Source of the DNA: a virus
Length of the DNA stretch: 10,976 nt
Virus genome (UHGV): UHGV-0119342
Strand: one strand, 5' to 3'
A program made the translations under genes and the position numbers. Positions within the stretch are counted from its first letter, which is position 1; every line of letters starts with the position of its first letter. Below the pieces are notes generated by a model. It saw only the letters and a program-made list of their open reading frames with translations. It ran no database searches and had not been told where the DNA came from. Shown piece by piece: positions 13 through 10,976 of this stretch.

Positions 13-61
13 TTAATCGCGGTTTACATCAGCGCGGCGTTAATCGGGTGATTTTCATCAG
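13..61. repeat. Imperfect tandem direct repeat upstream of the recombinase gene (ttaatcgcggtttacatcag at 13-32; ttaatcgggtgattttcatcag at 40-61)
   Basis: Two copies read directly, both starting with ttaatcg and ending with catcag, 27 bp apart; aatcgcg recurs at 93-99. Function not established. Confidence 0.4.
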
Positions 62-124
62 ACACGTTTAAATACACCATCTAAAGCGATACAATCGCGC
101 TATTAGTTTTTATGGTGGTAAAGA

Positions 125-1528
125 ATGAAACGTGTAATCAGCTACATCAGATTCAGTTCTGAGCGACAAGCCAAAGGCGACTCACTACGCAGACAGTCTA
201 AGATGGTTAATGACTGGCTTAAGGCTCATCCTGAGTACTACCTTGACCAAGATTTATCCTTCCGTGATTTGGGGGTGAGTGGGTTCACTGGTAAGCACTT
301 GAAAGGTGGCTTAGGTGACTTTTTAACCGCTATCGAGAAAGGGCTTGTTAAAGCTGGTGATACGCTCTTGATAGAATCTCTTGACCGTCTGTCACGTCAA
401 GATGTAGACCAAGCAAGTGAGCTACTCAGAAACATTCTTCGCTCTGGTGTAGATGTGGTCACCTTGTCCGATGGTGAACATTACACACGAGAATCTCTTA
501 AAGACCCGTTAGCTCTGATTAAAAGCATTTTGATAATGCAGCGGTCGCATGAGGAAAGTTTGAGGAAGTCTGAGCGTATACAAGCTGCATGGGATGCAAA
601 GAAAGAAGCTGCTAAAGCCGGTATCAAGATTTCTAGGCGTTGTCCTGCATGGCTTAAGCTTAATGATGACCGTAAAAGCTTCTCTGTGATACCTGAGAAG
701 GTAGAAACTGTGAGGAGATGCTTTCAATTACGGTTAGAGGGTAAGTCTATCTGGGAGATTGTCCGGATTCTTAATGATGAAGGTCACCAGACACTTAACC
801 AGTACAAAGCAGGTAAGTTTGGTCAAACCTCAGTGCAAGACCTTCTGAAAAATCGCTCTGTAATTGGTTACTTCACACCTAAAGGCTGTGAGGAGATAGT
901 TGGTTATTTCCCCCCTATCATCCCTGAGACTGATTTCTACAAAGTCCAGCAACTATCATATTCTCGTTATGGAAGAAAGCCTGCTTCAGATAAACCATTG
1001 AGTGTGAATCTTTTCAAAGGTGTTATCCGTTGTTCTGAATGTGGTCATGCTCTGATTATCACAGGCTTTAGCGATACAAGAAGCGGTATATATCGCTGTC
1101 CTTCTCGAAATGAAAACCGTTGCAATGCCAAAGGGCTGTCACGTAAGCAAACCGATGGTACATTACTTGCCCTGCTATCCCGTATAGACCGATTTGATAG
1201 CGATATGACGAATACCATAGACACACTGAAGCTACACCGTGAACACATCTCAAGCAATATTGAAAAGCTGGTACAGCTATCACTTGAAATTGAAGACTTG
1301 TCCGCTATTACCAGCAAACTAAAACAGTTAAAAGGTGAGCTATCACAGGTTGATGCGGATATCGAGAAGGAGACACAACGCCTTAAATCTATTGATGTGG
1401 GGTGTTTGTCTGATTGTGACTTGACTACAAAGGCGGGAAGGATTGAAGCACAACTGATAATCAAAAGTGCTGTTAAAGAGGTCGTTTTGAATACTGCTAA
1501 ACGTCGATGTAACTTTTCACAACGGTAA
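125..1528 (+). CDS. Large serine recombinase (integrase/resolvase family)
   Basis: 467-aa ORF. N-terminal resolvase-type catalytic region (YIRFSSERQ with candidate catalytic Ser; LIESLDRLSRQ), Cys-rich zinc-ribbon-like segment (CSECGH...YRCPSRNENRC), C-terminal coiled-coil-like stretch. GGTGG about 8 nt upstream of ATG. Confidence 0.85.
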   Translation: MKRVISYIRFSSERQAKGDSLRRQSKMVNDWLKAHPEYYLDQDLSFRDLGVSGFTGKHLKGGLGDFLTAIEKGLVKAGDTLLIESLDRLSRQDVDQASELLRNILRSGVDVVTLSDGEHYTRESLKDPLALIKSILIMQRSHEESLRKSERIQAAWDAKKEAAKAGIKISRRCPAWLKLNDDRKSFSVIPEKVETVRRCFQLRLEGKSIWEIVRILNDEGHQTLNQYKAGKFGQTSVQDLLKNRSVIGYFTPKGCEEIVGYFPPIIPETDFYKVQQLSYSRYGRKPASDKPLSVNLFKGVIRCSECGHALIITGFSDTRSGIYRCPSRNENRCNAKGLSRKQTDGTLLALLSRIDRFDSDMTNTIDTLKLHREHISSNIEKLVQLSLEIEDLSAITSKLKQLKGELSQVDADIEKETQRLKSIDVGCLSDCDLTTKAGRIEAQLIIKSAVKEVVLNTAKRRCNFSQR

Positions 1529-1554
1529 GGTAATTGACCTACCAATAACAGAAG

Positions 1555-1613
1555 ACCCCTCGGAGGATGTTACAGAGGCTATACAGTCGCTTTCTGAAGT
1601 CACTGAGAGGGGT
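1555..1613. terminator. Candidate structured terminator region between the convergent recombinase and 254-aa genes
   Basis: Perfect 7-bp inverted repeat acccctc (1555-1561) / gaggggt (1607-1613) with a 45-nt spacer that contains the motifs gttacagagg and agaggctatacag; T-rich flank on the minus-strand side. Long spacer makes terminator function uncertain. Confidence 0.3.
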
Positions 1614-1657
1614 TTAATAGATGTTGATGAGGTTATCATATAGTTGAGATTCTATCG

Positions 1658-2422
1658 TCAGTAGCGCTTGTTAGGATTCACAGAAAACTTCCGTAAAGCA
1701 TTACCCGACTTAAGCACCTTTGAAGCTTGCTCATTAGCTGAGGCTGTGAAGGTGCTCTCACCATTTTTAACGCTAACGCTCTTAGAGCACGTTACACGGG
1801 CTTTTAGCGCTTCATCTGATAACTCACTTGCCGAATAGCTAAAAAGCTCTTTACAGGTCAGCATAGGGCTTCCAAGGCTCGTTGTAGTGTTGCCAGTGTT
1901 CTTTTTACTGGTAGAACCGCCATCATTCGTGGTAGCGACCTTTCCAGTAGCTGCTGAAACATCAGTTTGCCCTACGATTGAACGAAATTCTACACCTTGG
2001 AAGGTCATCTGAATACGAAGACCATTAGCAATGGTATGCTCTTTACTCGCTTTAAACTGAGTAATGATACTATCAGTGATAGATATTCCATCTTTACAAA
2101 CAATAGTGATGATTTGCTTCTGGTCTCGCCATTGTTCAACCGTAGAAATAAAGGTCTCTACAAGTTGCCCCTGTCTGGTTAATAGAACTGAACCCGTCGA
2201 ATCAACCACTACAACACCGCTAATAGAGATGGTCTTAGGTGCTCTCTGAACATTATCAGTGATAGTTTGCCCCGATTGCATAGCCTGAGTTGTCACCATC
2301 ATCGGTGAGTCATAGTCCATCTGTTCAGTAGCTGTTAAGGCAAGAAAAGATTCTACATTATCTCTAAGGTGAAAATAGATACCATCTTTACCTGAGTATC
2401 TAATTTGCTTTGTGTCAAACAT
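1658..2422 (-). CDS. Hypothetical protein, possibly tail-associated (immediately downstream of the tape measure gene)
   Basis: 254-aa ORF, AGGA 9 nt upstream of ATG, Ser/Thr/Gly-rich C-terminal half. Functional guess from position only. Confidence 0.6.
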
Positions 2423-2441
2423 TGTTGTTATTCCTATTCTG

Positions 2442-2487
2442 TTAAGCGTGAGCTACGTGAAATCTAATTTTTGATGTTGGTATCTGC
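2442..2487 (-). promoter_or_regulatory. Conserved promoter-like element, copy A, about 20 nt upstream of the 254-aa gene start
   Basis: Minus-strand reading gcagataccaacatcaaaaattagatttcacgtagctcacgcttaa is about 70 percent identical to a 46-bp element upstream of the tape measure gene; contains a -10-like TAGATT after an A-tract, no canonical -35. Confidence 0.5.
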
Positions 2488-2553
2488 TCAGAAGAAATCA
2501 CGTAGCATTCGACTATTCATAGTTGAATCGTCATACTAGATAAAGATTAATAG

Positions 2554-2571
2554 ATTGCCATGTGTGGCAAT
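2554..2571 (-). terminator. Candidate hairpin 25 nt downstream of the tape measure stop
   Basis: Perfect 7-bp inverted repeat attgcca / tggcaat with 4-nt loop tgtg; AT-rich but not pure U tail on the minus strand. Weak terminator or attenuator. Confidence 0.3.
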
Positions 2572-2595
2572 AAATATTAGTAGTTCTAACATTGT

Positions 2596-4662
2596 TTATT
2601 CCTCTGGGTAAGCGGAGCTAATCAAGGTATCTTCCTGCATACGATTAATATGCGATGTGGTTCTTTCATCAATAACCTTTCCATCAAGTACCGTCTGAGT
2701 TGTGATATTGATTGTCTGAGGCTGAATATTTACTGACGGCTTGATAACCTTTAAATCTTGTGTGAATGTTTCCACTCGACCTTTCAGATTATTTAATGCT
2801 TCAGGTGAAAACTGTGGAACATCTTTTGATTTGCCATGAACCATAGCCCATAAAACAGCAGCTAAAGAGTTCATGTCACCAGTCAATGCTTGGTCTGTGG
2901 GTTCCACCTTTGACCTTACAACTTTGTCAATTGGATTATCTGACTTACTCATCTGACGTTCATAGAACGGTTTAACAATGGAGTTAATCACATCAGTTGC
3001 CATACCGACAATCATTACTTTGGTAATTGCATCAGCTACAGATAATTTTCCTTTACCACCTTCAACACTACCGGAACGTGAATTAATTCTTCCCGCTGCT
3101 GTATTTGCTACATTTCCAAGCATGGAAATAGCCCTAATTAAGTTCCAGATACCACCTACAGCACCAATACCAGACCTTACAGCGACAATACCAGCAAGTC
3201 CCTTTAATGCACTTAACAGGCCATTTGCGATACCATCAGCTACAGCTTTTTGAGTGTCATTTAATTCTCTGTAAGCAAGGGTCACTCTGTCAAAGAATCC
3301 CTGCACTCGGTAGCTAATCGTGGTTAAATCATCAATACCGTTTGACATGCTTTTCATCAGGTCGCCAAAATGTTCACCAAGATTTTTAGATTGACCACCT
3401 AGTGAATTAAGTAAATTAGTCAGTGACCTTGTAAAGTCTGTTAAACCTTCCTGTGAACCGTCGAACATTAAGGCCAGATTATTATTCCATGAATTAGAAA
3501 GGCGGCCTAACTGCGTCTGAGTAGAGTTAATAATCTTTTCCCATCCACCAGCTTTATCAATCATCCTTCCCATTTCAGCGGATACTTTAGGAAGAACATC
3601 TTTAGAAAGAACTTTACCGTTCTTCATAGCTGCATCTAATTGCTCGGTAGTCATCCCAAGGCTTCTGGCAAATAACTGGAAAGCACCTGCCATTCTGTCA
3701 CCTAATTGACCACGTAGCTCTTCAGCCTGAATCTTCCCTTTAGAAGCCATCTGCTCGAAAGCTTTCAGAATCCCGTTAATTTCATCAGTGCTTAAACCCA
3801 TTAGTCGGGATGTACCAATCACATTAGAAAATAAGGATTCTTTCTGGTCTGCATTCATATCACCAGCACCAGCGGAAAACTTAGCAAAGCTACTTAATGT
3901 TTCAATCTGGTCTACACCTGTATTATTAGCAAGATTCTTAACGAAGTCTGTAGCTCGTTTAGCGCCTTCATCGCCTAATACAAATTGTGCCGCTCGTTGT
4001 GATGCTTCTTTTTTCAGACCAATCTCCATAATCTTCCTATAAGCTTCTAAGGCTGTCTGAAAACTATAAATGGCTGTACCTGCTTTGATTGCACTTGTAG
4101 CTAATACATCTAAACCATTTGAAGCATTTTCACTGTGATTGTTTTTGCTGGTGGTCTTATTAAACTTAGAAAGTGTTTCACGTAGATTTTGATTTAACTT
4201 TGCTAACTCACGATTAAAAGCTTCGTTCCCAAGTGTCTTGGATTTACCGCTTAAGCTGTAATACTGGCTTCTAAAATACTTCTCAAGTAGAGGATTAAAG
4301 TCACGAAGCTTGCTCATATTCACGCTATGCGCTGCTGTGATTGCTCTGTTGCCGCTAATTCGTGGTTGCCTTGCTGCTTTAACAGTTTCTTCAACCTGAG
4401 TTTTGAACTTAAAGACCTTCGTAGATTTGGCTCTTTCCTCCAGCTTATTAAAAGTCTGGTTAATCTTCTTTTCCATATTCCCCAAAGAGGCTGTTAAATC
4501 CTTATCCATGCTCTTTGGGTTAACTTTAAATGCTCTATTCAAATTGCGTTCAATTCTTTGTGCTGACTGCAAAGCTGCCTTTTCAACTCTTTGCAGTCCC
4601 TTAATAACGTTTTCATTGAAGCCTAGCTCAACGATAAAACTATCAACTGTGAATTTGCTCAT
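2596..4662 (-). CDS. Phage tail tape measure protein
   Basis: 688-aa ORF. Coiled-coil-like N-terminal region, central segment resembling the conserved tape-measure domain (GKIQAEELRGQLGDRMAGAFQLFARSLGMTTEQLDAAMKNGKV), Gly-rich hydrophobic segments near the C-terminus. AGAGGTG 10 nt upstream of ATG. Confidence 0.8.
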   Translation of the reverse strand: MSKFTVDSFIVELGFNENVIKGLQRVEKAALQSAQRIERNLNRAFKVNPKSMDKDLTASLGNMEKKINQTFNKLEERAKSTKVFKFKTQVEETVKAARQPRISGNRAITAAHSVNMSKLRDFNPLLEKYFRSQYYSLSGKSKTLGNEAFNRELAKLNQNLRETLSKFNKTTSKNNHSENASNGLDVLATSAIKAGTAIYSFQTALEAYRKIMEIGLKKEASQRAAQFVLGDEGAKRATDFVKNLANNTGVDQIETLSSFAKFSAGAGDMNADQKESLFSNVIGTSRLMGLSTDEINGILKAFEQMASKGKIQAEELRGQLGDRMAGAFQLFARSLGMTTEQLDAAMKNGKVLSKDVLPKVSAEMGRMIDKAGGWEKIINSTQTQLGRLSNSWNNNLALMFDGSQEGLTDFTRSLTNLLNSLGGQSKNLGEHFGDLMKSMSNGIDDLTTISYRVQGFFDRVTLAYRELNDTQKAVADGIANGLLSALKGLAGIVAVRSGIGAVGGIWNLIRAISMLGNVANTAAGRINSRSGSVEGGKGKLSVADAITKVMIVGMATDVINSIVKPFYERQMSKSDNPIDKVVRSKVEPTDQALTGDMNSLAAVLWAMVHGKSKDVPQFSPEALNNLKGRVETFTQDLKVIKPSVNIQPQTINITTQTVLDGKVIDERTTSHINRMQEDTLISSAYPEE

Positions 4663-4679
4663 TCATATTTTTCACCTCT

Positions 4680-4725
4680 TTAAGCGTGTTGTACGTAAAT
4701 TCTATTTTTCAGTGTGGGTATTAGC
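4680..4725 (-). promoter_or_regulatory. Conserved promoter-like element, copy B, about 18 nt upstream of the tape measure start
   Basis: Minus-strand reading gctaatacccacactgaaaaatagaatttacgtacaacacgcttaa; -10-like TAGAAT after an A-tract; both copies end in CACGCTTAA just before the RBS. Confidence 0.5.
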
Positions 4726-4779
4726 TTTACAGATTTCATGAGGATAATTCTTATCCGAATCATCACGTAGCACACATAC

Positions 4780-4821
4780 AAAAAAAGGGAGAGCTACCGA
4801 TGTCACTCGATAATCTCTCCC
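4780..4821 (-). terminator. Rho-independent terminator (minus strand) between the 71-aa gene and the tape measure gene
   Basis: Perfect 7-bp GC-rich stem GGGAGAG / CTCTCCC (4787-4793 / 4815-4821), 21-nt loop, followed on the minus strand by a run of 7 U (4780-4786). Confidence 0.55.
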
Positions 4822-4871
4822 CGTACTATAGATTCGATAGAACCTATCTCATATACCCAACCAATTCTTTT

Positions 4872-5087
4872 TTAATGTCTGACAAGATAATGTAATTCCG
4901 TTTCACCTATGATTTGAGCATCAGAAGGAATACGGTCAATACACCACTTTGGAATCTTGCGTGTTTTTGGTTTGTGTGAGGTGATAACTTGACGTTTGTT
5001 TTTAATTCTTAAGGCTGGCTTAGTTTGTAACTTTAAGTTTTCACAAGCCGACTTAATAGTTTCATAACGCTGTTGCAAATCAATCAT
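4872..5087 (-). CDS. Hypothetical small basic protein
   Basis: 71-aa ORF, GAGGT 6 nt upstream of ATG, starts 23 nt after the stop of the upstream 234-aa gene; Lys/Arg-rich C-terminal half. Confidence 0.6.
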   Translation of the reverse strand: MIDLQQRYETIKSACENLKLQTKPALRIKNKRQVITSHKPKTRKIPKWCIDRIPSDAQIIGETELHYLVRH

Positions 5088-5110
5088 TCATCTACCTCAC
5101 ATATGCATAA

Positions 5111-5815
5111 TCAAACAGCCTTGCTAAATTCTCGTGGAACACTCAGAAAATCATTGAAGCTGATAATCTGTGCCAACTCTTGACGGTACTCCTTAGCCAG
5201 CGCTTGATGGTCACTAATCAGCTTAGCCAGTCTTGATTTCAGCAAATTAATCTCATTTTCTCTTGCTTTCATCAGTTTCTCTTTGGCAATTTCTTCAAGC
5301 TCAGCTTGTGATTTATCAGCAACAATTAGAGACAATCGATGTGGTGCTCTGACAGCTCTTTCCGTACGAATAACCCTTTGACCTTCTGGTAAATCTGCAA
5401 TCACTTTACCAATCTCTACAGGGTCATACCCCCAACCGTCACGGTCTAGTCGAGAGAAATAAGCATAAGAATTGGTTTGAAGCTCCATTAAAATAGCCAT
5501 TTCGTCAATTTCGTCTTCAAGCTTGGACTGAATTTTCTCGTAAACACTTCTCATTGCTTCTTGAGAGTCTTTAATAGCTTGGAAATATCGGCGTTGTAGC
5601 TTCAACTTCAAATCAAGTTCACAACTTTCGTTCATAGAAAAATCAATTTCAACTCTTGGAATCTCGAGTGGTTCTGGTGGAATATATGGACCTTTATTTA
5701 CTTCGTGTGATTCCCGCCAAGCTCTATCAAAAGATTCACGCAAAGTTAATTCGTGAATATCAAGTGCACTTGGTCGGCTTTCAATAATCATTTCATTTTC
5801 ATCACGGATAGCCAT
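5111..5815 (-). CDS. Hypothetical acidic protein with coiled-coil-like C-terminal half
   Basis: 234-aa ORF, AGAGGAAAGG 5 nt upstream of ATG; heptad-like helical C-terminal region. No recognisable catalytic motif. Confidence 0.65.
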   Translation of the reverse strand: MAIRDENEMIIESRPSALDIHELTLRESFDRAWRESHEVNKGPYIPPEPLEIPRVEIDFSMNESCELDLKLKLQRRYFQAIKDSQEAMRSVYEKIQSKLEDEIDEMAILMELQTNSYAYFSRLDRDGWGYDPVEIGKVIADLPEGQRVIRTERAVRAPHRLSLIVADKSQAELEEIAKEKLMKARENEINLLKSRLAKLISDHQALAKEYRQELAQIISFNDFLSVPREFSKAV

Positions 5816-6020
5816 TAATACCTTTCCTCTTCTAAGATAATTTATGTTTCAGTTTTTAAAAAGCACACCTGACATCCTCGAACTTAGAAGAGGCTTAAAA
5901 GGCGTTTGCCAAGTATGCTTTTTAAAAGCTGAAAAGGCCCTAGATAACTAAAACGCTATAAAGGGCTAAGGTGAAGAAATTAAAACATCTAAAGGATTCA
6001 ATAACGAATGAACAAGAGTA

Positions 6021-6069
6021 CTTTTCGAGATGACCTCTCAGGTTATATAAGAGGTCATGTAGCGAAAAG
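6021..6069. repeat. Nested palindrome in the leader upstream of the 234-aa gene
   Basis: Inner perfect 9-bp inverted repeat atgacctct / agaggtcat (6030-6038 / 6050-6058) with 11-nt spacer, flanked by outer arms cttttcg (6021-6027) / cgaaaag (6063-6069). No U-tract on either strand. Confidence 0.45.
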
Positions 6070-6155
6070 CATTGCACCTTTCCAAATCAGAATATCCATC
6101 CATCGGATTATTGAAAATATGATTTTAGGAAGAGTTGCTCTTCCCTATAATTAAA

Positions 6156-6184
6156 ATTATGTCATACTTAAGGTTATTTGTCAA
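6156..6184 (-). promoter_or_regulatory. Candidate sigma70-type promoter (minus strand) for the 234-aa / 71-aa genes
   Basis: Minus-strand -35 TTGACA (6179-6184), 17-bp spacer, -10 CATAAT (6156-6161); implies a leader of about 330 nt. Confidence 0.4.
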
Positions 6185-6462
6185 CAGCCTTTTAACAGAT
6201 TGGTAACATCAATTTCTATTTACTGTGTTGCCTACCCAGCAACCAACAAATAAGCCAAGCAACGTCCAAGCAATTATTAAGCCCATTAGTGAACCCTCAC
6301 AGAATCCGTAACCAAAATATTGTCGCCGTACAGGATTGTCACAGCACCTTTCAAAAATTGCTCTGGGGAAATACTGTATTTGTTCGTTTGCTCGATAACC
6401 AATCTTTTCATGTCGCTGTCTGCAATTGGTAGCATCATTCGAGGCTCGTTAAACTCCACCGA

Positions 6463-6609
6463 CTAAATAAAGTCAGAGATGTTTTCTGCATTATCAGCCA
6501 TCAGCTTTAGTAATTTATCAAAATTAATTGCGATACCTGCATCACTGAAAGCCTGAATCATCAGAGCGGTGTCGTTATCAACGAAAATCTGTAATTCGTA
6601 ATTGCTCAT
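6463..6609 (-). CDS. Small acidic hypothetical protein (48 aa, not in the supplied ORF track)
   Basis: Hand translation MSNYELQIFVDNDTALMIQAFSDAGIAINFDKLLKLMADNAENISDFI; AAGGAG 9 nt upstream of ATG. Confidence 0.4.
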   Translation of the reverse strand: MSNYELQIFVDNDTALMIQAFSDAGIAINFDKLLKLMADNAENISDFI

Positions 6610-6764
6610 TTTTAAAATCTCCTTTTTACCAGACCTCCTCAATCGCTCTGTAACGAGCTAAACAGTCTTTTTCAGGGGTAGCCTGTACAGTGGTATTACC
6701 CACCCTAAAATAAGATAGTTTTTTGCGTTAGAATGCGATTGAGAGCGTCTGAGAAGCTGTTTTT

Positions 6765-7052
6765 CTAATTTCTCTTAAAGTCTCGGACTTGCATAAGATT
6801 TTTTGGTCTGGTATCGGCTCTGTTACCATTTCGATGGATAATTTGCTTATTGGATTGATAGCCATGATAAAGGAACCAGACAACATATTTCACGTAGAAA
6901 GTATATCGGCCTATATTAAATGTTTTGTTGCCGTAGTCGTCGGTATTTATCGTGACTGACTCTCCATCAGACCAGCACAGGGAATCACTGGATTCATCAT
7001 AGATAAGGTGTTCTGTAAAATATCGTCTAACATCTTCATGCCAAGGTTTCAT
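6765..7052 (-). CDS. Truncated HNH-like protein, paralogue of the N-terminal part of the 9540-10064 endonuclease
   Basis: 95-aa ORF, GAGGAGG 4 nt upstream of ATG. Shares KPWHEDVRRY with KAWPEEVIRY and VVWFLYHG...IIHRNGNRADTRPKNL with VIFYLYHG...IDHIDGDPLNNAISNL, but ends before the final HNH Asn and has no AP2 domain. Confidence 0.65.
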   Translation of the reverse strand: MKPWHEDVRRYFTEHLIYDESSDSLCWSDGESVTINTDDYGNKTFNIGRYTFYVKYVVWFLYHGYQSNKQIIHRNGNRADTRPKNLMQVRDFKRN

Positions 7053-7264
7053 AAAACCTCCTCACCCCAATAACCTAATTCAATCTTGTGACGCTCAAAC
7101 CATTCTGGCTTGACTGCTGCTTTCAGTACTTCATTTGGGCCAATGGCTTTAATGAAAATATCTTTTGAGTTATGGATGTCACCGAATCCGTTTCCTTTAA
7201 TCAGGAGGTCGGAGATGTAGCGAATCATTTTATCTGTGTGGTATTCAAAGGTAACGCATAGCAT
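7049..7264 (-). CDS. Hypothetical protein
   Basis: 71-aa ORF, GGAGG 4 nt upstream of ATG; start overlaps the stop of the upstream gene by 1 nt, and its stop overlaps the start of the 95-aa gene by 4 nt. Confidence 0.55.
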   Translation of the reverse strand: MLCVTFEYHTDKMIRYISDLLIKGNGFGDIHNSKDIFIKAIGPNEVLKAAVKPEWFERHKIELGYWGEEVL

Positions 7265-7542
7265 TAAACCTCCAGAGACAGCTTGTGAATTTTAAGACTC
7301 AATAGACGGGCAATATCAATCTTAAAGCCGTTAAGCGCCTTCAAAGTAGCTAAAGCGTCCTGACTAATTCGGATGTGTTTACGACCTTTAGAGACTGGAT
7401 ATTTCAGTAAATCCGACTCAGTAACCTCTTTAGCAATTGCAAGCTGCATAACAGTTTGATGAGGGAGGTTAGTTGTCTGTTTAATTCGGGTAAGCTCGTG
7501 AAAGGCTTCTTCTGAAATACGGGTCAAAGTGTGTTTCTTCAT
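7264..7542 (-). CDS. Ribbon-helix-helix (CopG/Arc-like) DNA-binding protein, putative regulator
   Basis: 92-aa ORF, AGAGGA 8 nt upstream of ATG. N-terminus MKKHTLTRISEEAFHELTRIKQTTNLPHQTVMQLAIAKEV fits the RHH strand-helix-helix pattern; a second similar segment (HIRISQDALATLKAL...) may be a tandem repeat. Confidence 0.55.
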   Translation of the reverse strand: MKKHTLTRISEEAFHELTRIKQTTNLPHQTVMQLAIAKEVTESDLLKYPVSKGRKHIRISQDALATLKALNGFKIDIARLLSLKIHKLSLEV

Positions 7543-8100
7543 TTAAAATTCCTCTGTAACTAAATACGGGTCAAACTCAAAGTCTGGTTGCTCGTTTTCC
7601 ATTGGCTCAATATTTCCAACGGCAATATGATGCTCAACAACACCAATTAACTTTGCGCACATTACAGCAAGCAATGCACAATATTTATCGCTTGGTAATT
7701 CGTAGCTAAGTCTGGTTGCTTGTCGCTGAAGATGATTTGTCACGGTGGCTGAGTTAATTTCATCAAGGTTCTTTAGGAGATAAAATAGCTTCTTGTTGTA
7801 TTTCGGGTGACCTTCACCTCTACAGAATCCAATGAAAATATCATCAAGCTTACTTGGTAATTGTTCGTAGCTGTCAAAGTTAGCCAGATAATTTTTGATG
7901 CTGTTCTTTGTTGTTTTGCGTACTGACATATAACGACTCCTCGGTGTAATTGCCCGAATTACTTCGTCAATGCCTTTGCGCTCTGCTCTGGTGAACTTGG
8001 GTACTTCGTGACTGGTGGGGGAGTTTGTGTAAGCGTAGGAGTTGTGCTTGTTGCGTTCTCTTGATGCCTGAAGCATCGCTCTAAATTCTCTGTCGTTCAT
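7543..8100 (-). CDS. Hypothetical protein, first gene of the leftward operon
   Basis: 185-aa ORF, GAGGG 11 nt upstream of ATG; stop codon directly abuts the next start (TAAATG). Acidic/aromatic C-terminal tail (DFEFDPYLVTEEF). No recognisable domain. Confidence 0.6.
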   Translation of the reverse strand: MNDREFRAMLQASRERNKHNSYAYTNSPTSHEVPKFTRAERKGIDEVIRAITPRSRYMSVRKTTKNSIKNYLANFDSYEQLPSKLDDIFIGFCRGEGHPKYNKKLFYLLKNLDEINSATVTNHLQRQATRLSYELPSDKYCALLAVMCAKLIGVVEHHIAVGNIEPMENEQPDFEFDPYLVTEEF

Positions 8101-8151
8101 TCATGTTCTGACCCTCATAAGATGTTATTATTCTGTTAACTTATATATACA

Positions 8152-8180
8152 ATCTTAGCAGTTTCAAAGACTAATGTCAA
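8152..8180 (-). promoter_or_regulatory. Candidate sigma70-type promoter for the leftward operon
   Basis: Minus-strand -35 TTGACA (8175-8180), 17-bp spacer, -10 TAAGAT (8152-8157); back-to-back with the plus-strand promoter. Confidence 0.3.
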
Positions 8181-8187
8181 GCATTTT

Positions 8188-8217
8188 TTAACATTTCATT
8201 AACATCTGTGGTATAAT
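8188..8217 (+). promoter_or_regulatory. Candidate strong sigma70-type promoter with extended -10
   Basis: -35 TTAACA (8188-8193), 18-bp spacer, TGg + TATAAT (8209-8217); points toward the small ORF at 8348. Confidence 0.5.
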
Positions 8218-8347
8218 GGTTTTATGAGAGAGGGAAAATATAAAGGCGTGGCTATGAGGTTTATTCGATAGGGGTTGGTACAAGCCCAACTAACCGAATC
8301 AACTATGTATTTGGTCACATGGTATTGCATTGCACACAGGAAATTTA

Positions 8348-8524
8348 ATGGTAAATCTCCCTCCTGAGCTGGGGTCACCTGATGTATGGGCTGGTGGAGG
8401 TGTTGGGCTGATTGCAGGCCTGCTACTTCGCTATGTCCTCGTCAGAGTGCTTGTTGTCTTTAAACTGTTCGGTCGTACATGGACGCTTGACCTTAAGGAT
8501 AATGACCACACAGACCCCCGTTAA
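8348..8524 (+). CDS. Small single-pass membrane protein (58 aa from the ATG; the ORF track begins at a TTG at 8330)
   Basis: AGGA 6 nt upstream of the ATG at 8348; hydrophobic segment WAGGGVGLIAGLLLRYVLVRVLVV; locally GC-richer than its surroundings. Confidence 0.45.
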   Translation: MVNLPPELGSPDVWAGGGVGLIAGLLLRYVLVRVLVVFKLFGRTWTLDLKDNDHTDPR

Positions 8525-8538
8525 ACTCCCTCCAAAAC

Positions 8539-8570
8539 CCCCTGTACGAGATAGTATAGGGGTGTCTTTA
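8539..8570 (+). terminator. Candidate terminator after the small membrane-protein ORF
   Basis: Imperfect 8-bp stem cccctgta / tatagggg (one mismatch), 8-nt loop, followed by tgtcttta. Confidence 0.3.
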
Positions 8571-9453
8571 GCATTTTGTGCTATCTATTAAAAAATAGCT
8601 TGACAGAACAGGAAAGCTGTATCTATCAAGTATTCACCTCTCTGACAGTAATTTCTAAAAGTTCTTATTTTTCAATAAGTTGTAATTAGCCAATATATAA
8701 GGCTGTCCAGTACCTTCACAGAAAAACTTCAGAAGCCTTCTTAATCAATCCACTAAGCGAGAGAGAGCGATAACCCCAGAGAGGGAAGCTCCCTTCTTAA
8801 AAACCTTCTTGACAATCTTTACAGGCCTTGTTCAAGGTAATCGCAATAGTTTTTCTTCCCTCGGTTTCCCGTGTTCCTCGGTTTGCCTATTGAGGTTTGA
8901 AAGACCTCTGTAACTTCCCTCTTAGACAGGGAAGAATAATATTGGTGACACAAGCGAAGCGCCCCTCTAAAAAGATTTTTTAGCTATTTTGTTTAAAAGC
9001 ACATCAAACGATACATTTTATTGATTTAGGTCAAAGACAAAAGCATTGACAAAATGGTAAGATTGTTCACATGACCTTACTTAACAGATTCTTAAGAGCT
9101 TTGAAGCGGCCTATTTAACAAGGTCACTACCTCTGGTCTTATCGTTCCCTCTCTTCTTGGTAGTTCTGTTAAGTATCTTTTCAGGTATCTCTTACAGTCA
9201 CTGTTAAGATGATACTCTCCCTTCGGGTTATATCGTTACTTTCTCTCCCGTTAAACACTCCTTCCTAACTATCTACATAATCACTTCTAAGAATCTTACA
9301 AGGTAATATCCAGACCTCTTATAGCTGACCTGATACAGAAACATTACAGGCATACTCTCTAGGTTCTGTGTAGTTCCCTTGGTGGGAATAGATGCTCCTA
9401 CAATAAGAGCATCATTAATCTATATAGTCCTCTTCCGAGAACTTAATAGTTTT

Positions 9454-9481
9454 TTGATGTACATCAATCATTATCTAAAAT
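9454..9481 (+). promoter_or_regulatory. Candidate promoter for the HNH endonuclease gene
   Basis: -35 TTGATG (9454-9459), 16-bp spacer, -10 TAAAAT (9476-9481). Confidence 0.3.
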
Positions 9482-9539
9482 ATGATATGAAGTTTCTTGG
9501 TAGTATTACATCAACAAGTTAATTGAAATAAGGAATATT

Positions 9540-10064
9540 ATGGTGACTAGGTATACCAAGGCATGGCCTGAAGAAGTTATAAGATACATCAATGAAAATA
9601 TTACAGCAGATTTTGAATCTGGAACATTATTTAGAAATGGTGTAAAAATCGAGGGTTCACTTGTAAATCCTAAACCAAGACAATATCTGGCTTTTGGTTG
9701 TCGGATTAATGGTAAGTTCAGAATACTTAAGGTGCATCAGGTTATTTTCTATCTATATCATGGTAAACAAGCTAAACTATGGATTGACCATATAGATGGT
9801 GACCCGCTAAATAATGCTATTAGCAATCTTCGCGAGGTTACCAAAGAGCAGAATCAGGCAAACATGATACCCAGAAAGAAAACAAAATCAGGTTACAAGG
9901 GAGTACACCCAAGAGTGGATAACAAGGGGTTCTGGGCTACAATACGCTGTAATGGAAAATCTCATTATCTGGGTCAGTTTAATACAGCAGAAGAAGCTGC
10001 AAAAGCCTATGATGCTGCATCACTGGAATTGCATGGTAAATATGGACACAGGAATTTTAGCTGA
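9540..10064 (+). CDS. Free-standing homing endonuclease, NUMOD4-like N-terminus + HNH nuclease + AP2 DNA-binding domain
   Basis: 174-aa ORF, AAGGA 5 nt upstream of ATG. HNH motif VHQVIFYLYHG...IDHIDGDPLNNAISNLREVTKEQNQAN; AP2-like C-terminus YKGVHPRVDNKGFWATIRCNGKSHYLGQFNTAEEAAKAYDAAS. Confidence 0.85.
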   Translation: MVTRYTKAWPEEVIRYINENITADFESGTLFRNGVKIEGSLVNPKPRQYLAFGCRINGKFRILKVHQVIFYLYHGKQAKLWIDHIDGDPLNNAISNLREVTKEQNQANMIPRKKTKSGYKGVHPRVDNKGFWATIRCNGKSHYLGQFNTAEEAAKAYDAASLELHGKYGHRNFS

Positions 10065-10074
10065 TAGTTAATAA

Positions 10075-10104
10075 AGACCTGACATAAACTTGTCGATAGG
10101 TCTG
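10075..10104 (+). terminator. Candidate stem-loop downstream of the HNH endonuclease gene
   Basis: agacctgaca ... tgtcgataggtct: 10 paired positions with a 3-nt bulge, AT-rich tail (gattaaagtttat); weak as an intrinsic terminator. Confidence 0.3.
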
Positions 10105-10896
10105 ATTAAAGTTTATACAGTGATTTTTCATCTTCTAATTTTTTTATAAAAATCGTAGTACCCCCTCTACATTCCCCTTCACCGATAATCTTAAAAAATA
10201 TCTACACTCAATTGATGGCTGTTAAGTACCCCAGATTCACGATATAGCACCCCCTTTGCAAAAGCAGTTAAAATATCTATAACCAATTATTGACTTTCTT
10301 CATAGCATCTGTTTACCTCCACCTCAAAAAAACCTTCATCACATTTCACAGCATCTATCAAGAAGATTTAACCTATCAATAGCTGTAACATTTTATAGTC
10401 CTGTGAAGTCCTCCCCAGTTTTCTCTGTAACAGACACAAACTTCTGTGACCTTATGTGTCAATGACTTATAAGACATGCTCTCAAGGTGCTGTATAGCCT
10501 CTTATCTTCCAATACATAAAACTCTTATAAATCAGTACTGATATGTATACAGTTCGTTTTTAACATAATAGCTGTTTTACGCACTAAGAAGCATCTACGT
10601 AGATTCTGTATAGAGATTAAGATGTCTCTAAGTGATTTTTTAAGAGGAGATACGAAGGAACTATAACCATCACTTCATAACTTTCACGTAGGTAGCTATT
10701 AAGTAGGTTGATAGTCACTTTGAGGGAATATTGATAGTGACCAACTGCATAGACACCGTTATATAGCCCTGTATATAGCACTATATGTAGTGTCTGGAGA
10801 GGAACGACTAACACGATACAGTTTACCCTGAAAAGAGACTTCACAGATTCTCTATATATTTCAATAAGTTATGATAAAAAGAGACTATATCAATAC

Positions 10897-10955
10897 TGCA
10901 TAGAATCTGTGTAGGATTGCATAGATACTTGGAAAAATGCCTTTAAATTGCATAG
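10897..10955. repeat. Helically phased TGyrTAG repeats (iteron-like or operator-array-like)
   Basis: TGCATAG at 10897, TGTGTAG at 10908, TGCATAG at 10918 and TGCATAG at 10949; spacings 11, 10 and 31 bp. The last two copies sit in a longer direct repeat ATTGCATAG(A/G)TAC. Confidence 0.45.
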
Positions 10956-10976
10956 GTACTAACCTGTTTATGTCCT

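Follow-up and report, generated by a model that had tools for sequence, protein, structure and literature searches.

A conserved, structured leader ahead of the tail genes of an Escherichia coli island as a candidate RNA switch

The stretch of viral DNA analyzed here (UHGV virus genome UHGV-0119342; 10,976 nucleotides [nt]; hereafter the window) contains, upstream of a minus-strand gene for a protein of 234 amino acids (aa), a gap of 390 bases, most of which we refer to as the leader. Its minus-sense RNA carries hairpins that are under selection, and the final module is made so that it can pair with the ribosome-binding site of the 234-aa gene: the leader is conserved, its helices covary, the covariation has the sense of one strand, and one of its loops is complementary to the ribosome-binding site. 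We think it fairly probable that the region (5816–6208) acts as RNA, as the ∼335-nt 5′ leader of a tail-gene operon, and that it gates translation of the 234-aa gene and brings about partial termination. An original prediction, made from the letters of the window, had listed a promoter, a short stem, a nested palindrome and a plus-strand open reading frame (ORF) here, all of which lie where it had placed them, and had proposed that the palindrome is either the operator of a dimeric repressor or part of an RNA-level regulatory structure.

For comparison, ∼45 homologous leaders were collected from E. coli loci, from GTDB with one locus per species (E. albertii, Citrobacter, Escherichia sp.) and from IMG/VR contigs, with the more divergent Citrobacter and metagenome leaders among them gathered through homologs of the 234-aa protein. 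Identity of these leaders to the window is 71–87% even where the downstream gene is ∼55% identical in nt and 23% in aa, and no other non-coding part of the mosaic island is as well conserved. When positions 5800–6146 of the minus strand are folded as RNA, the energy is −105.6 kcal/mol, compared with −74.5 ± 5.2 kcal/mol in dinucleotide shuffles (z = −5.96; 0 of 100 shuffles as good). Read along the minus strand, the order of elements is upstream block, promoter, stem-loop 1 (SL1), a variable stretch, a 20-nt box containing SL2, then SL3, an unpaired stretch, a GC hairpin followed by a T-run, SL4, the ribosome-binding site, and the start codon.

Covarying hairpins and a loop complementary to the ribosome-binding site

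The largest element, and the one with the closest link to the 234-aa gene, is SL4, a hairpin that the original prediction had missed. Its stem of 28 base pairs (bp), with one C·A mismatch and three G·U pairs, has a folding energy of −34.0 kcal/mol, and its loop holds a sequence, likewise overlooked before, that is the perfect 11-nt complement of CUUAGAAGAGG (5836–5826), the Shine-Dalgarno (SD) region of the 234-aa gene. With its extension (17 nt in all), this anti-SD forms a duplex with the SD region of −22.1 kcal/mol, which 0 of 300 shuffles reach. Counted in a plain MAFFT alignment of 21 distinct sequences, both sides change in 13 of the 28 pairs of SL4, and 93% of cells are paired, compared with 38–56% when the partner is slid; the SD helix alone changes on both sides in 4 of its 11 pairs (94% of cells paired). 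Taken together, SL4 and the 11-bp SD helix have 93.3% of cells paired (38–56% slid) and 17 pairs changed on both sides, and 0 of 500 shuffles reach the observed value in four of five measures. RNAalifold independently predicts SL4, with 11 covarying pairs, and G·U outnumbers A·C in its pairing by 61 to 18.

The pairing of anti-SD and SD is found in all 24 E. coli-type leaders and in 6 divergent ones, always within the SL4 loop. When the 22 nt before the start codon were searched for duplexes with the 103 nt upstream (300 dinucleotide shuffles per leader), the best partner of the SD region in each homolog was again the SL4 loop, at −14.3 to −22.1 kcal/mol, with 0–15 of the 300 shuffles reaching this value. 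Four unrelated anti-SD/SD classes keep both SL4 and the pairing, namely CCUCUUCUAAG/CUUAGAAGAGG (the class of the window), UUCACCUCU/AGAGGUGAA, CUUCUAAGUGU/ACACUUAGAGG, and UCCUCUAAGUG/CAUUUAGAGGA. Two of the features by which SD-sequestering leaders are recognized, complementarity that covers the SD and compensatory change in relatives, are both present. Among 13 ribosome-binding regions of the window, that of the 234-aa gene is the best match to the SL4 loop (−22.1 kcal/mol), the next one giving −16.3 kcal/mol. A duplex of −28 kcal/mol between the SL4 loop and plus-strand positions 1725–1755 was set aside as a gapped chance match to a strand that is probably not transcribed.

The palindrome noted in the original prediction corresponds to SL3, which is kept in divergent leaders; all 12 distinct E. 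coli variants have an SL3 stem of 11–13 bp, with z between −4.2 and −6.8. MAFFT had misregistered part of SL3, and the counts for this hairpin come from a covariance-model alignment of 28 distinct sense-strand sequences, with reverse-strand matches excluded. Here, both sides change in 5 of the 12 pairs of the inner helix, and 96.4% of cells are paired; for inner and outer helices jointly the value is 95.0%, compared with 35–51% with the partner slid, and 0 of 500 shuffles reach the covariation score. The part played by the outer arms is different: they never covary (7 of 8 pairs are invariant, and one pair is broken in 16 of the 28 sequences), they are lost in divergent leaders, and they draw on the same bases as the better-conserved SL2, with which they are mutually exclusive. 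The palindrome is thus retained as a covarying inner helix, while from the sequence comparison its “nested” outer arms would be an alternative pairing at best, or incidental.

The strand sense of SL3 separates the two functions originally proposed for it. Summed from the per-pair table, the inner helix has ∼57 G·U cells as opposed to 2 A·C cells in 34 distinct sequences (divergent copies included), an imbalance that is expected of a minus-sense RNA and not of a symmetric DNA site. Had the palindrome been the operator of a dimeric repressor such as the ribbon-helix-helix-like protein of the island, its perfect 9-bp inverted repeat would be readily explained, small putative DNA-binding proteins of the island (DndE-like and helix-turn-helix, weak matches only) would be at hand, and joint changes in the two half-sites could be accommodated, given that symmetric operators can also alter both together. 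The half-site sequence, however, is not conserved and differs among the 12 variants while pairing is kept, the stem varies in length by up to 2 bp, the G·U excess is specific to one strand, a signature not generated by a DNA site, and the palindrome does not overlie the promoter, lying 87–135 nt downstream of the −10 hexamer and ∼80–130 nt downstream of the predicted start. An operator is accordingly disfavored, and we hold it to be very improbable; an RNA-level regulatory structure is supported by the same observations, inner pairing being kept while the sequence changes.

Similar considerations apply to the idea that the region is a replication origin or a packaging (pac/cos) site of the island and acts as DNA. 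Several traits would suit such a site: the region is non-coding, long, AT-rich, and conserved, inverted repeats are numerous in it, and it adjoins morphogenesis genes. Against this, there are no iterons or tandem repeats in the region and no similarity to phage sequences, those of Felixounaviruses included; the G·U covariation is strand-specific, and a precise complement of a ribosome-binding site would be needless in a DNA site. To this explanation we give almost no credence.

SL2 and SL1 complete the set of hairpins. The 20-nt box around SL2 is invariant in Escherichia, and its core, GTGCAATGCTT, is identical in all lineages, including the Citrobacter and metagenome copies. Within the box, the SL2 stem covaries (pair 5–21 from AU to GC, pair 6–20 from AU to UG). 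The box doubles as an SD-like AAAGGUG followed by AUG. A minus-strand mini-ORF (MLF...) starting at this AUG was rejected, being 5–58 codons long and not conserved, with the SD-like part lost in divergent copies, and a long-range pairing of 7–8 nt between the box and the 5′ arm of SL4 was dropped as too short and inconsistent across classes. SL1, which had been pointed out as a 7-bp stem at the predicted 5′ end of the transcript, is borne out by its presence in every leader variant, with altered stems (GGGAGAG/CUCUCUU, AGGAGAG/UUCUCCU, AGAGAG/CUCUCU) and energies of −6.5 to −11 kcal/mol; in ∼20 of 37 homologs, the window not among them, it is followed by a T-run and has a terminator-like score.

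The leader does not code for protein. The 48-codon plus-strand ORF (6008–6154) of the original prediction is present in the window and was rejected as a gene, as its counterparts among homologs range from absent to 77 codons and differ in frame and ends; no conserved ORF was found on either strand of the leader.

The leader as a whole is a mosaic of conserved modules and optional inserts. The inserts, of 27 and 28 nt, have small hairpins of their own (GGATAG..CTATCC and GGTATgttctATACC) and are located after the −10 hexamer in loci L011, L013, L023, L025, and L039 and before the box in loci L005, L009, L012, L013, and L016. Because they shuffle independently among leaders, the leader is an assembly of exchangeable cassettes.

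Searches for described relatives of this RNA gave none. The Rfam 15 covariance models, run on the whole window at E ≤ 1, had no match in the region, and when the region was searched alone at E ≤ 10, the best match was the idnO motif (18.8 bits vs. a gathering score of 100; E = 1.6), which we take to be due to chance, with all others weaker. A tRNA/tmRNA scan was negative. When the region, the promoter block, and the 234-aa protein served as DNA and protein queries against a phage collection, no coliphage matched, and the only hits were generic promoter-like ones in Enterococcus phages. Scans of genome and viral collections for the exact box returned only copies of the same island plus one chance match (locus L017, in a bacterial metagenome-assembled genome). 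Judged by these searches, the leader lies outside all described Rfam families, the C4 antisense RNA included, and is a candidate new RNA family.

Table 1. Positions of the leader elements and of the 234-aa gene in the window
Feature	Position	Strand	Sequence or description
Upstream block	6185–6208	minus	TGTTACCAATCTGTTAAAAGGCTG, 24 nt; position 19 is A in other homologs
Sigma-70 promoter	6156–6184	minus	TTGACA-17-(TG)nCATAAT; −35 at 6184–6179, −10 at 6161–6156
SL1	6128–6144	minus	7-bp stem GGAAGAG/CUCUUCC, 3-nt loop; plus-strand arms ggaagag 6128–6134, ctcttcc 6138–6144
SL2	6064–6082	minus	GAAAGGU(GCAAU)GCUUUUC, within the 20-nt box GAAAGGTGCAATGCTTTTCG (6063–6082)
Whole nested palindrome	6021–6069	minus	49 bp; outer arms GCUUUUCG / CGAAAAGU at 6021–6027 / 6063–6069
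SL3 (inner palindrome)	6030–6058	minus	AUGACCUCUUA / UGAGAGGUCAU; inner arms 6030–6038 / 6050–6058, perfect 9-bp inverted repeat, extendable to 11 bp
Unpaired stretch	5990–6015	minus	UUGUUCAUUCGUUAUUGAAUCCUUUA; conserved in E. coli homologs
Terminator-like element	5923–5966	minus	hairpin GCCCU..AUAGC(GUUUUA)GUUAU..AGGGC (5966–5937), then CUUUUCAGCUUUU (5936–5924)
SL4	5847–5934	minus	28-bp hairpin; arms 5934–5907 / 5874–5847, 32-nt loop
Anti-SD	5883–5893	minus	CCUCUUCUAAG, in the SL4 loop; extension GCCUUU at 5903–5898
Ribosome-binding region of the 234-aa gene	5820–5836	minus	CUUAGAAGAGGAAAGGU
234-aa gene	5111–5815	minus	first gene of the module 234aa-71aa-tape measure-Dit-like

Promoter, terminator-like element, and a proposed two-layer control

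The minus-strand promoter of the original prediction is confirmed as a good match to the sigma-70 consensus (11 of 12 positions), and a TG one base upstream of the −10 hexamer makes it an extended −10 promoter. The −35 hexamer is invariant in the E. coli homologs, and the −10 hexamer is either CATAAT or GATGAT. The promoter is near-consensus and probably constitutive, and the transcript is predicted to start near 6148. Just upstream lies a block that contains a TGTTA-N6-TGTTA direct repeat and an A-rich, UP-element-like stretch. It is nearly invariant in the E. coli homologs, even when these carry a different allele of the small ORF that ends just upstream of it, and slightly diverged in the Citrobacter and metagenome copies. 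Conserved beyond the needs of a promoter alone, the block may be an UP element or the binding site of a regulator.

Between SL3 and SL4 is a hairpin with an interrupted 10-bp GC stem (−13.9 kcal/mol), followed by the U-rich tract. The original prediction had seen no terminator-like U-tract in the region. This holds under strict criteria, a scan of the window for intrinsic terminators giving 0 sites, but not for the element in a wider sense: the GCCCU/AGGGC stem and the T-run are present in all homologs despite variable loop inserts, and a canonical terminator, GCCCTAA(T)..TTAGGGC plus a T-run, is found at this place or just upstream in 19 of 37 homologs. The U-rich tract doubles as the 5′ side of the lower SL4 stem.

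From these elements, we infer a control that is exerted after initiation and in two layers, partial termination and then covering of the SD. The near-consensus sigma-70 promoter would fire at ∼6148 and start a transcript in which the four conserved hairpins SL1–SL4 fold. The hairpin and U-rich tract at 5966–5924 would stop part of the transcripts, yielding a leader RNA of ∼220 nt, and in the transcripts that read through, the 11–17-nt anti-SD in the SL4 loop would cover the ribosome-binding site of the 234-aa gene. The order of synthesis would be 5′ arm, anti-SD, 3′ arm, SD, so that SL4 would form first. A linker of 10 nt is too short to bridge 28 bp of helix, and the loop can pair with the SD only once the lower 16 bp of SL4, which are AU-rich, have opened; lower SL4 and the loop-to-SD helix are therefore sterically incompatible, which would make the leader a two-state switch, with the ribosome-binding site free when SL4 is complete and blocked when the upper stem coexists with the pseudoknot. 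The energies involved, −34.0 kcal/mol for the full SL4 versus −17.5 kcal/mol for its upper 12 bp plus −22.1 kcal/mol for the SD duplex (a rough sum, not a pseudoknot calculation), suggest that the two states are close enough for a switch. As the genes downstream are tail genes, one may reasonably guess that the block is released when a Felix O1-like phage infects the cell.

It should be noted that several points weigh against this scheme. The terminator-like element is not picked up by the strict scan in the window, and attenuation may be weak or absent here. The transcript start, the 3′ ends, and any processing are predictions, the energetics of the pseudoknot come from the addition of separate terms, and the inducing signal, phage infection, has been guessed from gene content. 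The genes upstream have the same orientation, with no intervening terminator, and the region could instead be an internal spacer of a longer transcript. The relatives are mosaic and recombining, so that what the covariation measures is lineages and not separate events; in effect, SL4 has 4 classes and SL3 ∼6. Finally, the invariant loop of SL2 and the upstream block are left without an explanation in the model.

As at lambda pR′, the combination of a strong constitutive promoter and subsequent terminators suggests either antitermination or a short RNA that is functional. If SL2 and SL3 were a cis antitermination signal, either read by a protein of the island or of a helper phage (nut/boxB-like) or acting on the polymerase itself (HK022 put-like), the downstream terminators would be read through only during phage infection, following the pR′-tR′/Q logic of lambda, and the short transcript would be a by-product. 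The order of promoter, two adjacent hairpins, one or two terminators, and late-type genes fits this proposal, as do the tail genes downstream, and an invariant GCAAU loop on the covarying SL2 stem is the signature of a hairpin read by a protein. However, no Q-like or N-like protein was recognized among the island proteins by Pfam and PHROGs, no boxA-like sequence was seen by eye, the leader has no sequence similarity to any coliphage in the phage collection searches, and the terminator is weak in the window. We regard such a signal as unlikely, and, if real, it could coexist with translational gating by the anti-SD rather than replace it.

The functional short RNA takes a more specific form if SL4 (∼88 nt) is excised from leader transcripts, themselves abundant, and acts in trans, its loop pairing with the ribosome-binding site of the 234-aa gene on other transcripts and so silencing the tail module; the division into four anti-SD/SD classes would then be one of specificity (hetero-immunity). 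An anti-SD in the large single-stranded loop of a very stable hairpin is the usual way in which an antisense RNA presents its pairing sequence, the full 28-bp stem sterically hinders pairing in cis (a geometric inference), a strong, apparently constitutive promoter is followed by terminators, and the compensatory anti-SD/SD pairs are class-specific. On the other side, neither C4 nor any other Rfam family matches, processing of SL4 is a prediction, the cis switch explains the complementarity equally well, and leader classes do not follow the types of the downstream gene, so that “immunity groups” are not evident. Silencing in trans is, in our estimate, possible and rather improbable. In its most far-reaching version, processed SL4 would be a stable trans antisense RNA that silences the tail module of an unrecognized family of Felixounavirus-associated satellites, to which the yecE island of E. 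coli O157:H7 would belong; the classes would be immunity-like, and infection by the helper would relieve the silencing. We put this forward as a doubtful conjecture; if true, it would reveal an RNA control circuit analogous to P4 CI or P1 C4 and evolutionarily independent of them. RNase III is a further factor to consider, as the SL4 stem is a near-uninterrupted duplex of the length (at least ∼20 bp) that characterizes substrates of this enzyme, cleavage itself being only predicted. Cutting of SL4 by RNase III and its release as a trans antisense RNA are alternatives that computation does not separate from the cis switch.

Relation to known leaders and antisense RNAs

As far as can be judged from sequence, the leader would work like known SD-sequestering or attenuating leaders and like the antisense RNAs encoded in phage and satellite leaders, and by all tests used here, it falls outside any described family. 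The C4 RNA of phages P1 and P7 shares an operon with its target and is encoded ahead of it, its loops are complementary to the downstream ribosome-binding site, and variants of loop and target are matched; satellite P4 has an RNA-based control, by CI RNA, from a constitutive promoter. The leader resembles C4 (Rfam RF01695) and P4 CI in being a structured RNA with a loop complementary to the ribosome-binding site of its own transcript and with matched loop and target variants. It differs from both in having no sequence or covariance-model similarity to them, in using a single 24–28-bp hairpin with one long loop, and in preceding tail genes instead of antirepressor or replication genes; in addition, processing and action in trans are only hypothetical here.

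The leader of lambda N and the R0.3 site of T7 gene 0.3 are RNase III-sensitive leader hairpins that control translation. Common to these and to the leader studied here is a long imperfect hairpin just upstream of a ribosome-binding site, with upstream sequence that can pair with that site. At 28 bp, SL4 is long enough for RNase III, and in the model, a cut would separate anti-SD from SD. Unlike in lambda N and R0.3, the anti-SD is located in the apical loop and not in the stem, and there is no homology. RNA thermometers and the expression platforms of riboswitches likewise oppose anti-SD:SD pairing to a competing helix, and, like the thermometers, SL4 is rich in AU in its lower part, but no aptamer or thermometer family matches, and the mosaic leader lacks a conserved multi-helix junction that could form a ligand pocket.

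With boxB/nut and HK022 put, the leader shares a short hairpin, SL2, with an invariant pentaloop on a covarying stem, a second hairpin next to it, and a location between promoter and terminators. Here, however, there is no boxA and no N-like protein, and the GCAAU loop is unlike any known boxB, so that the resemblance is one of form only. The late pR′-tR′ region of lambdoid phages is similar in that a strong, always-active promoter (predicted in our case) is followed by a short leader, which here would end at a terminator-like element, and by morphogenesis genes. What sets the leader apart from it is the absence of a recognized Q-like gene, Q-binding element, or pause element, the weak terminator in the window, and the added translational block. 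In lambdoid phages, the short terminated transcript can be a functional small RNA (sRNA), StxS (PMC7547250).

The yecE island and the genes around the leader

The window is 100% identical to the island of E. coli strain Z0117EC0032, an element of ∼11.9 kb that splits yecE of E. coli and carries a serine recombinase; the island spans positions 12054–23927 of locus L001, and positions 55–10976 of the window and beyond. On the plus strand is the serine recombinase gene, and the minus strand carries, in order, small genes, the leader region, the 234-aa gene, a 71-aa gene, the tape measure gene, and a distal tail (Dit)-like gene. The tape measure protein has ∼30% aa identity to its Felixounavirus counterpart, the Dit-like gene has ∼74% nt identity to the gene that follows the tape measure gene in Felixounaviruses, and the gene order of the tail module is that of phage Bas63. 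Capsid and terminase genes are absent from the island, a candidate for a satellite of virulent Felix O1-like phages or for an element that interferes with their tails.

The 234-aa gene occupies the position of the tail chaperone relative to Felixounavirus Bas63. Its product matched no Pfam or PHROG family, homologs are confined to this island family, and the structure model consists entirely of long helices, with a pLDDT of 56 that is too poor for a fold search. PGAP calls distant homologs “transposase” (3289–3996 of locus L004, 3284–3994 of locus L005, and other loci; 23–24% identity, E = 5e-19), a name that has no Pfam support and is probably a misannotation.

The leader directly precedes the tape measure and distal tail genes that are akin to those of virulent Felix O1-like phages, and if the island is a satellite or tail-interference element, the leader would be the decision point for the expression of its tail genes. 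Its interest lies in the clean natural covariation, in a long hairpin that, unusually, presents an anti-SD in its loop, and in the fact that the island is unstudied; it is a compact RNA switch candidate that can be tested with natural compensatory variants.

A blastn search with positions 5700–6400 of the window found matches in 479 of 5,426 complete E. coli genomes (∼9%), many of which start exactly at the ribosome-binding site or within the leader. A related island is present in yecE of E. coli O157:H7; from its size and from a report on SpLE2 and yecE, we presume that it is probably the integrative element SpLE2 of strain Sakai. SpLE2 is reported to be missing from a strain that has a phage in yecE (PMC6256406). 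The ECs2623 transcript is strongly Hfq-bound in O157 Sakai (supplement of PMC4104026) and was considered as a lead; it was rejected, as ECs2623 is located in prophage Sp13, outside the island. The EcOnc sRNA listing gives no sRNA for SpLE2.

Just upstream of the leader, at 6209–6286 of the minus strand, is an unannotated, hydrophobic ORF of 25 codons (MGLIIAWTLLGLFVGCWVGNTVNRN), the ATG of which overlaps the stop codon of the gene before it (TAATG). Homologs have either this allele or a second one (MGLVIICFVLIGMIAGASIKV), with the frame open in both; because both alleles keep the frame, the ORF probably encodes a real small membrane peptide. The preceding gene (6286–6614, minus strand), directly upstream of the leader, encodes a 107-aa protein in most relatives; in the window it is interrupted by a stop codon and is called a pseudogene by PGAP.

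Further away, ∼1.4 kb without a credible ORF (8101–9539) separate a 185-aa gene on the minus strand from an AP2/HNH gene on the plus strand; the counterpart in relatives holds a 62-aa gene, a methyltransferase gene, or an insertion sequence (IS) element, and the segment may contain divergent promoters or an origin. Two genes for HNH_3-type endonucleases, one of them fused to an AP2 domain, are located at 6765–7052 (minus strand) and 9540–10064 (plus strand). Their presence varies among relatives, and endonucleases of this type are typical of the homing endonucleases of virulent phages.

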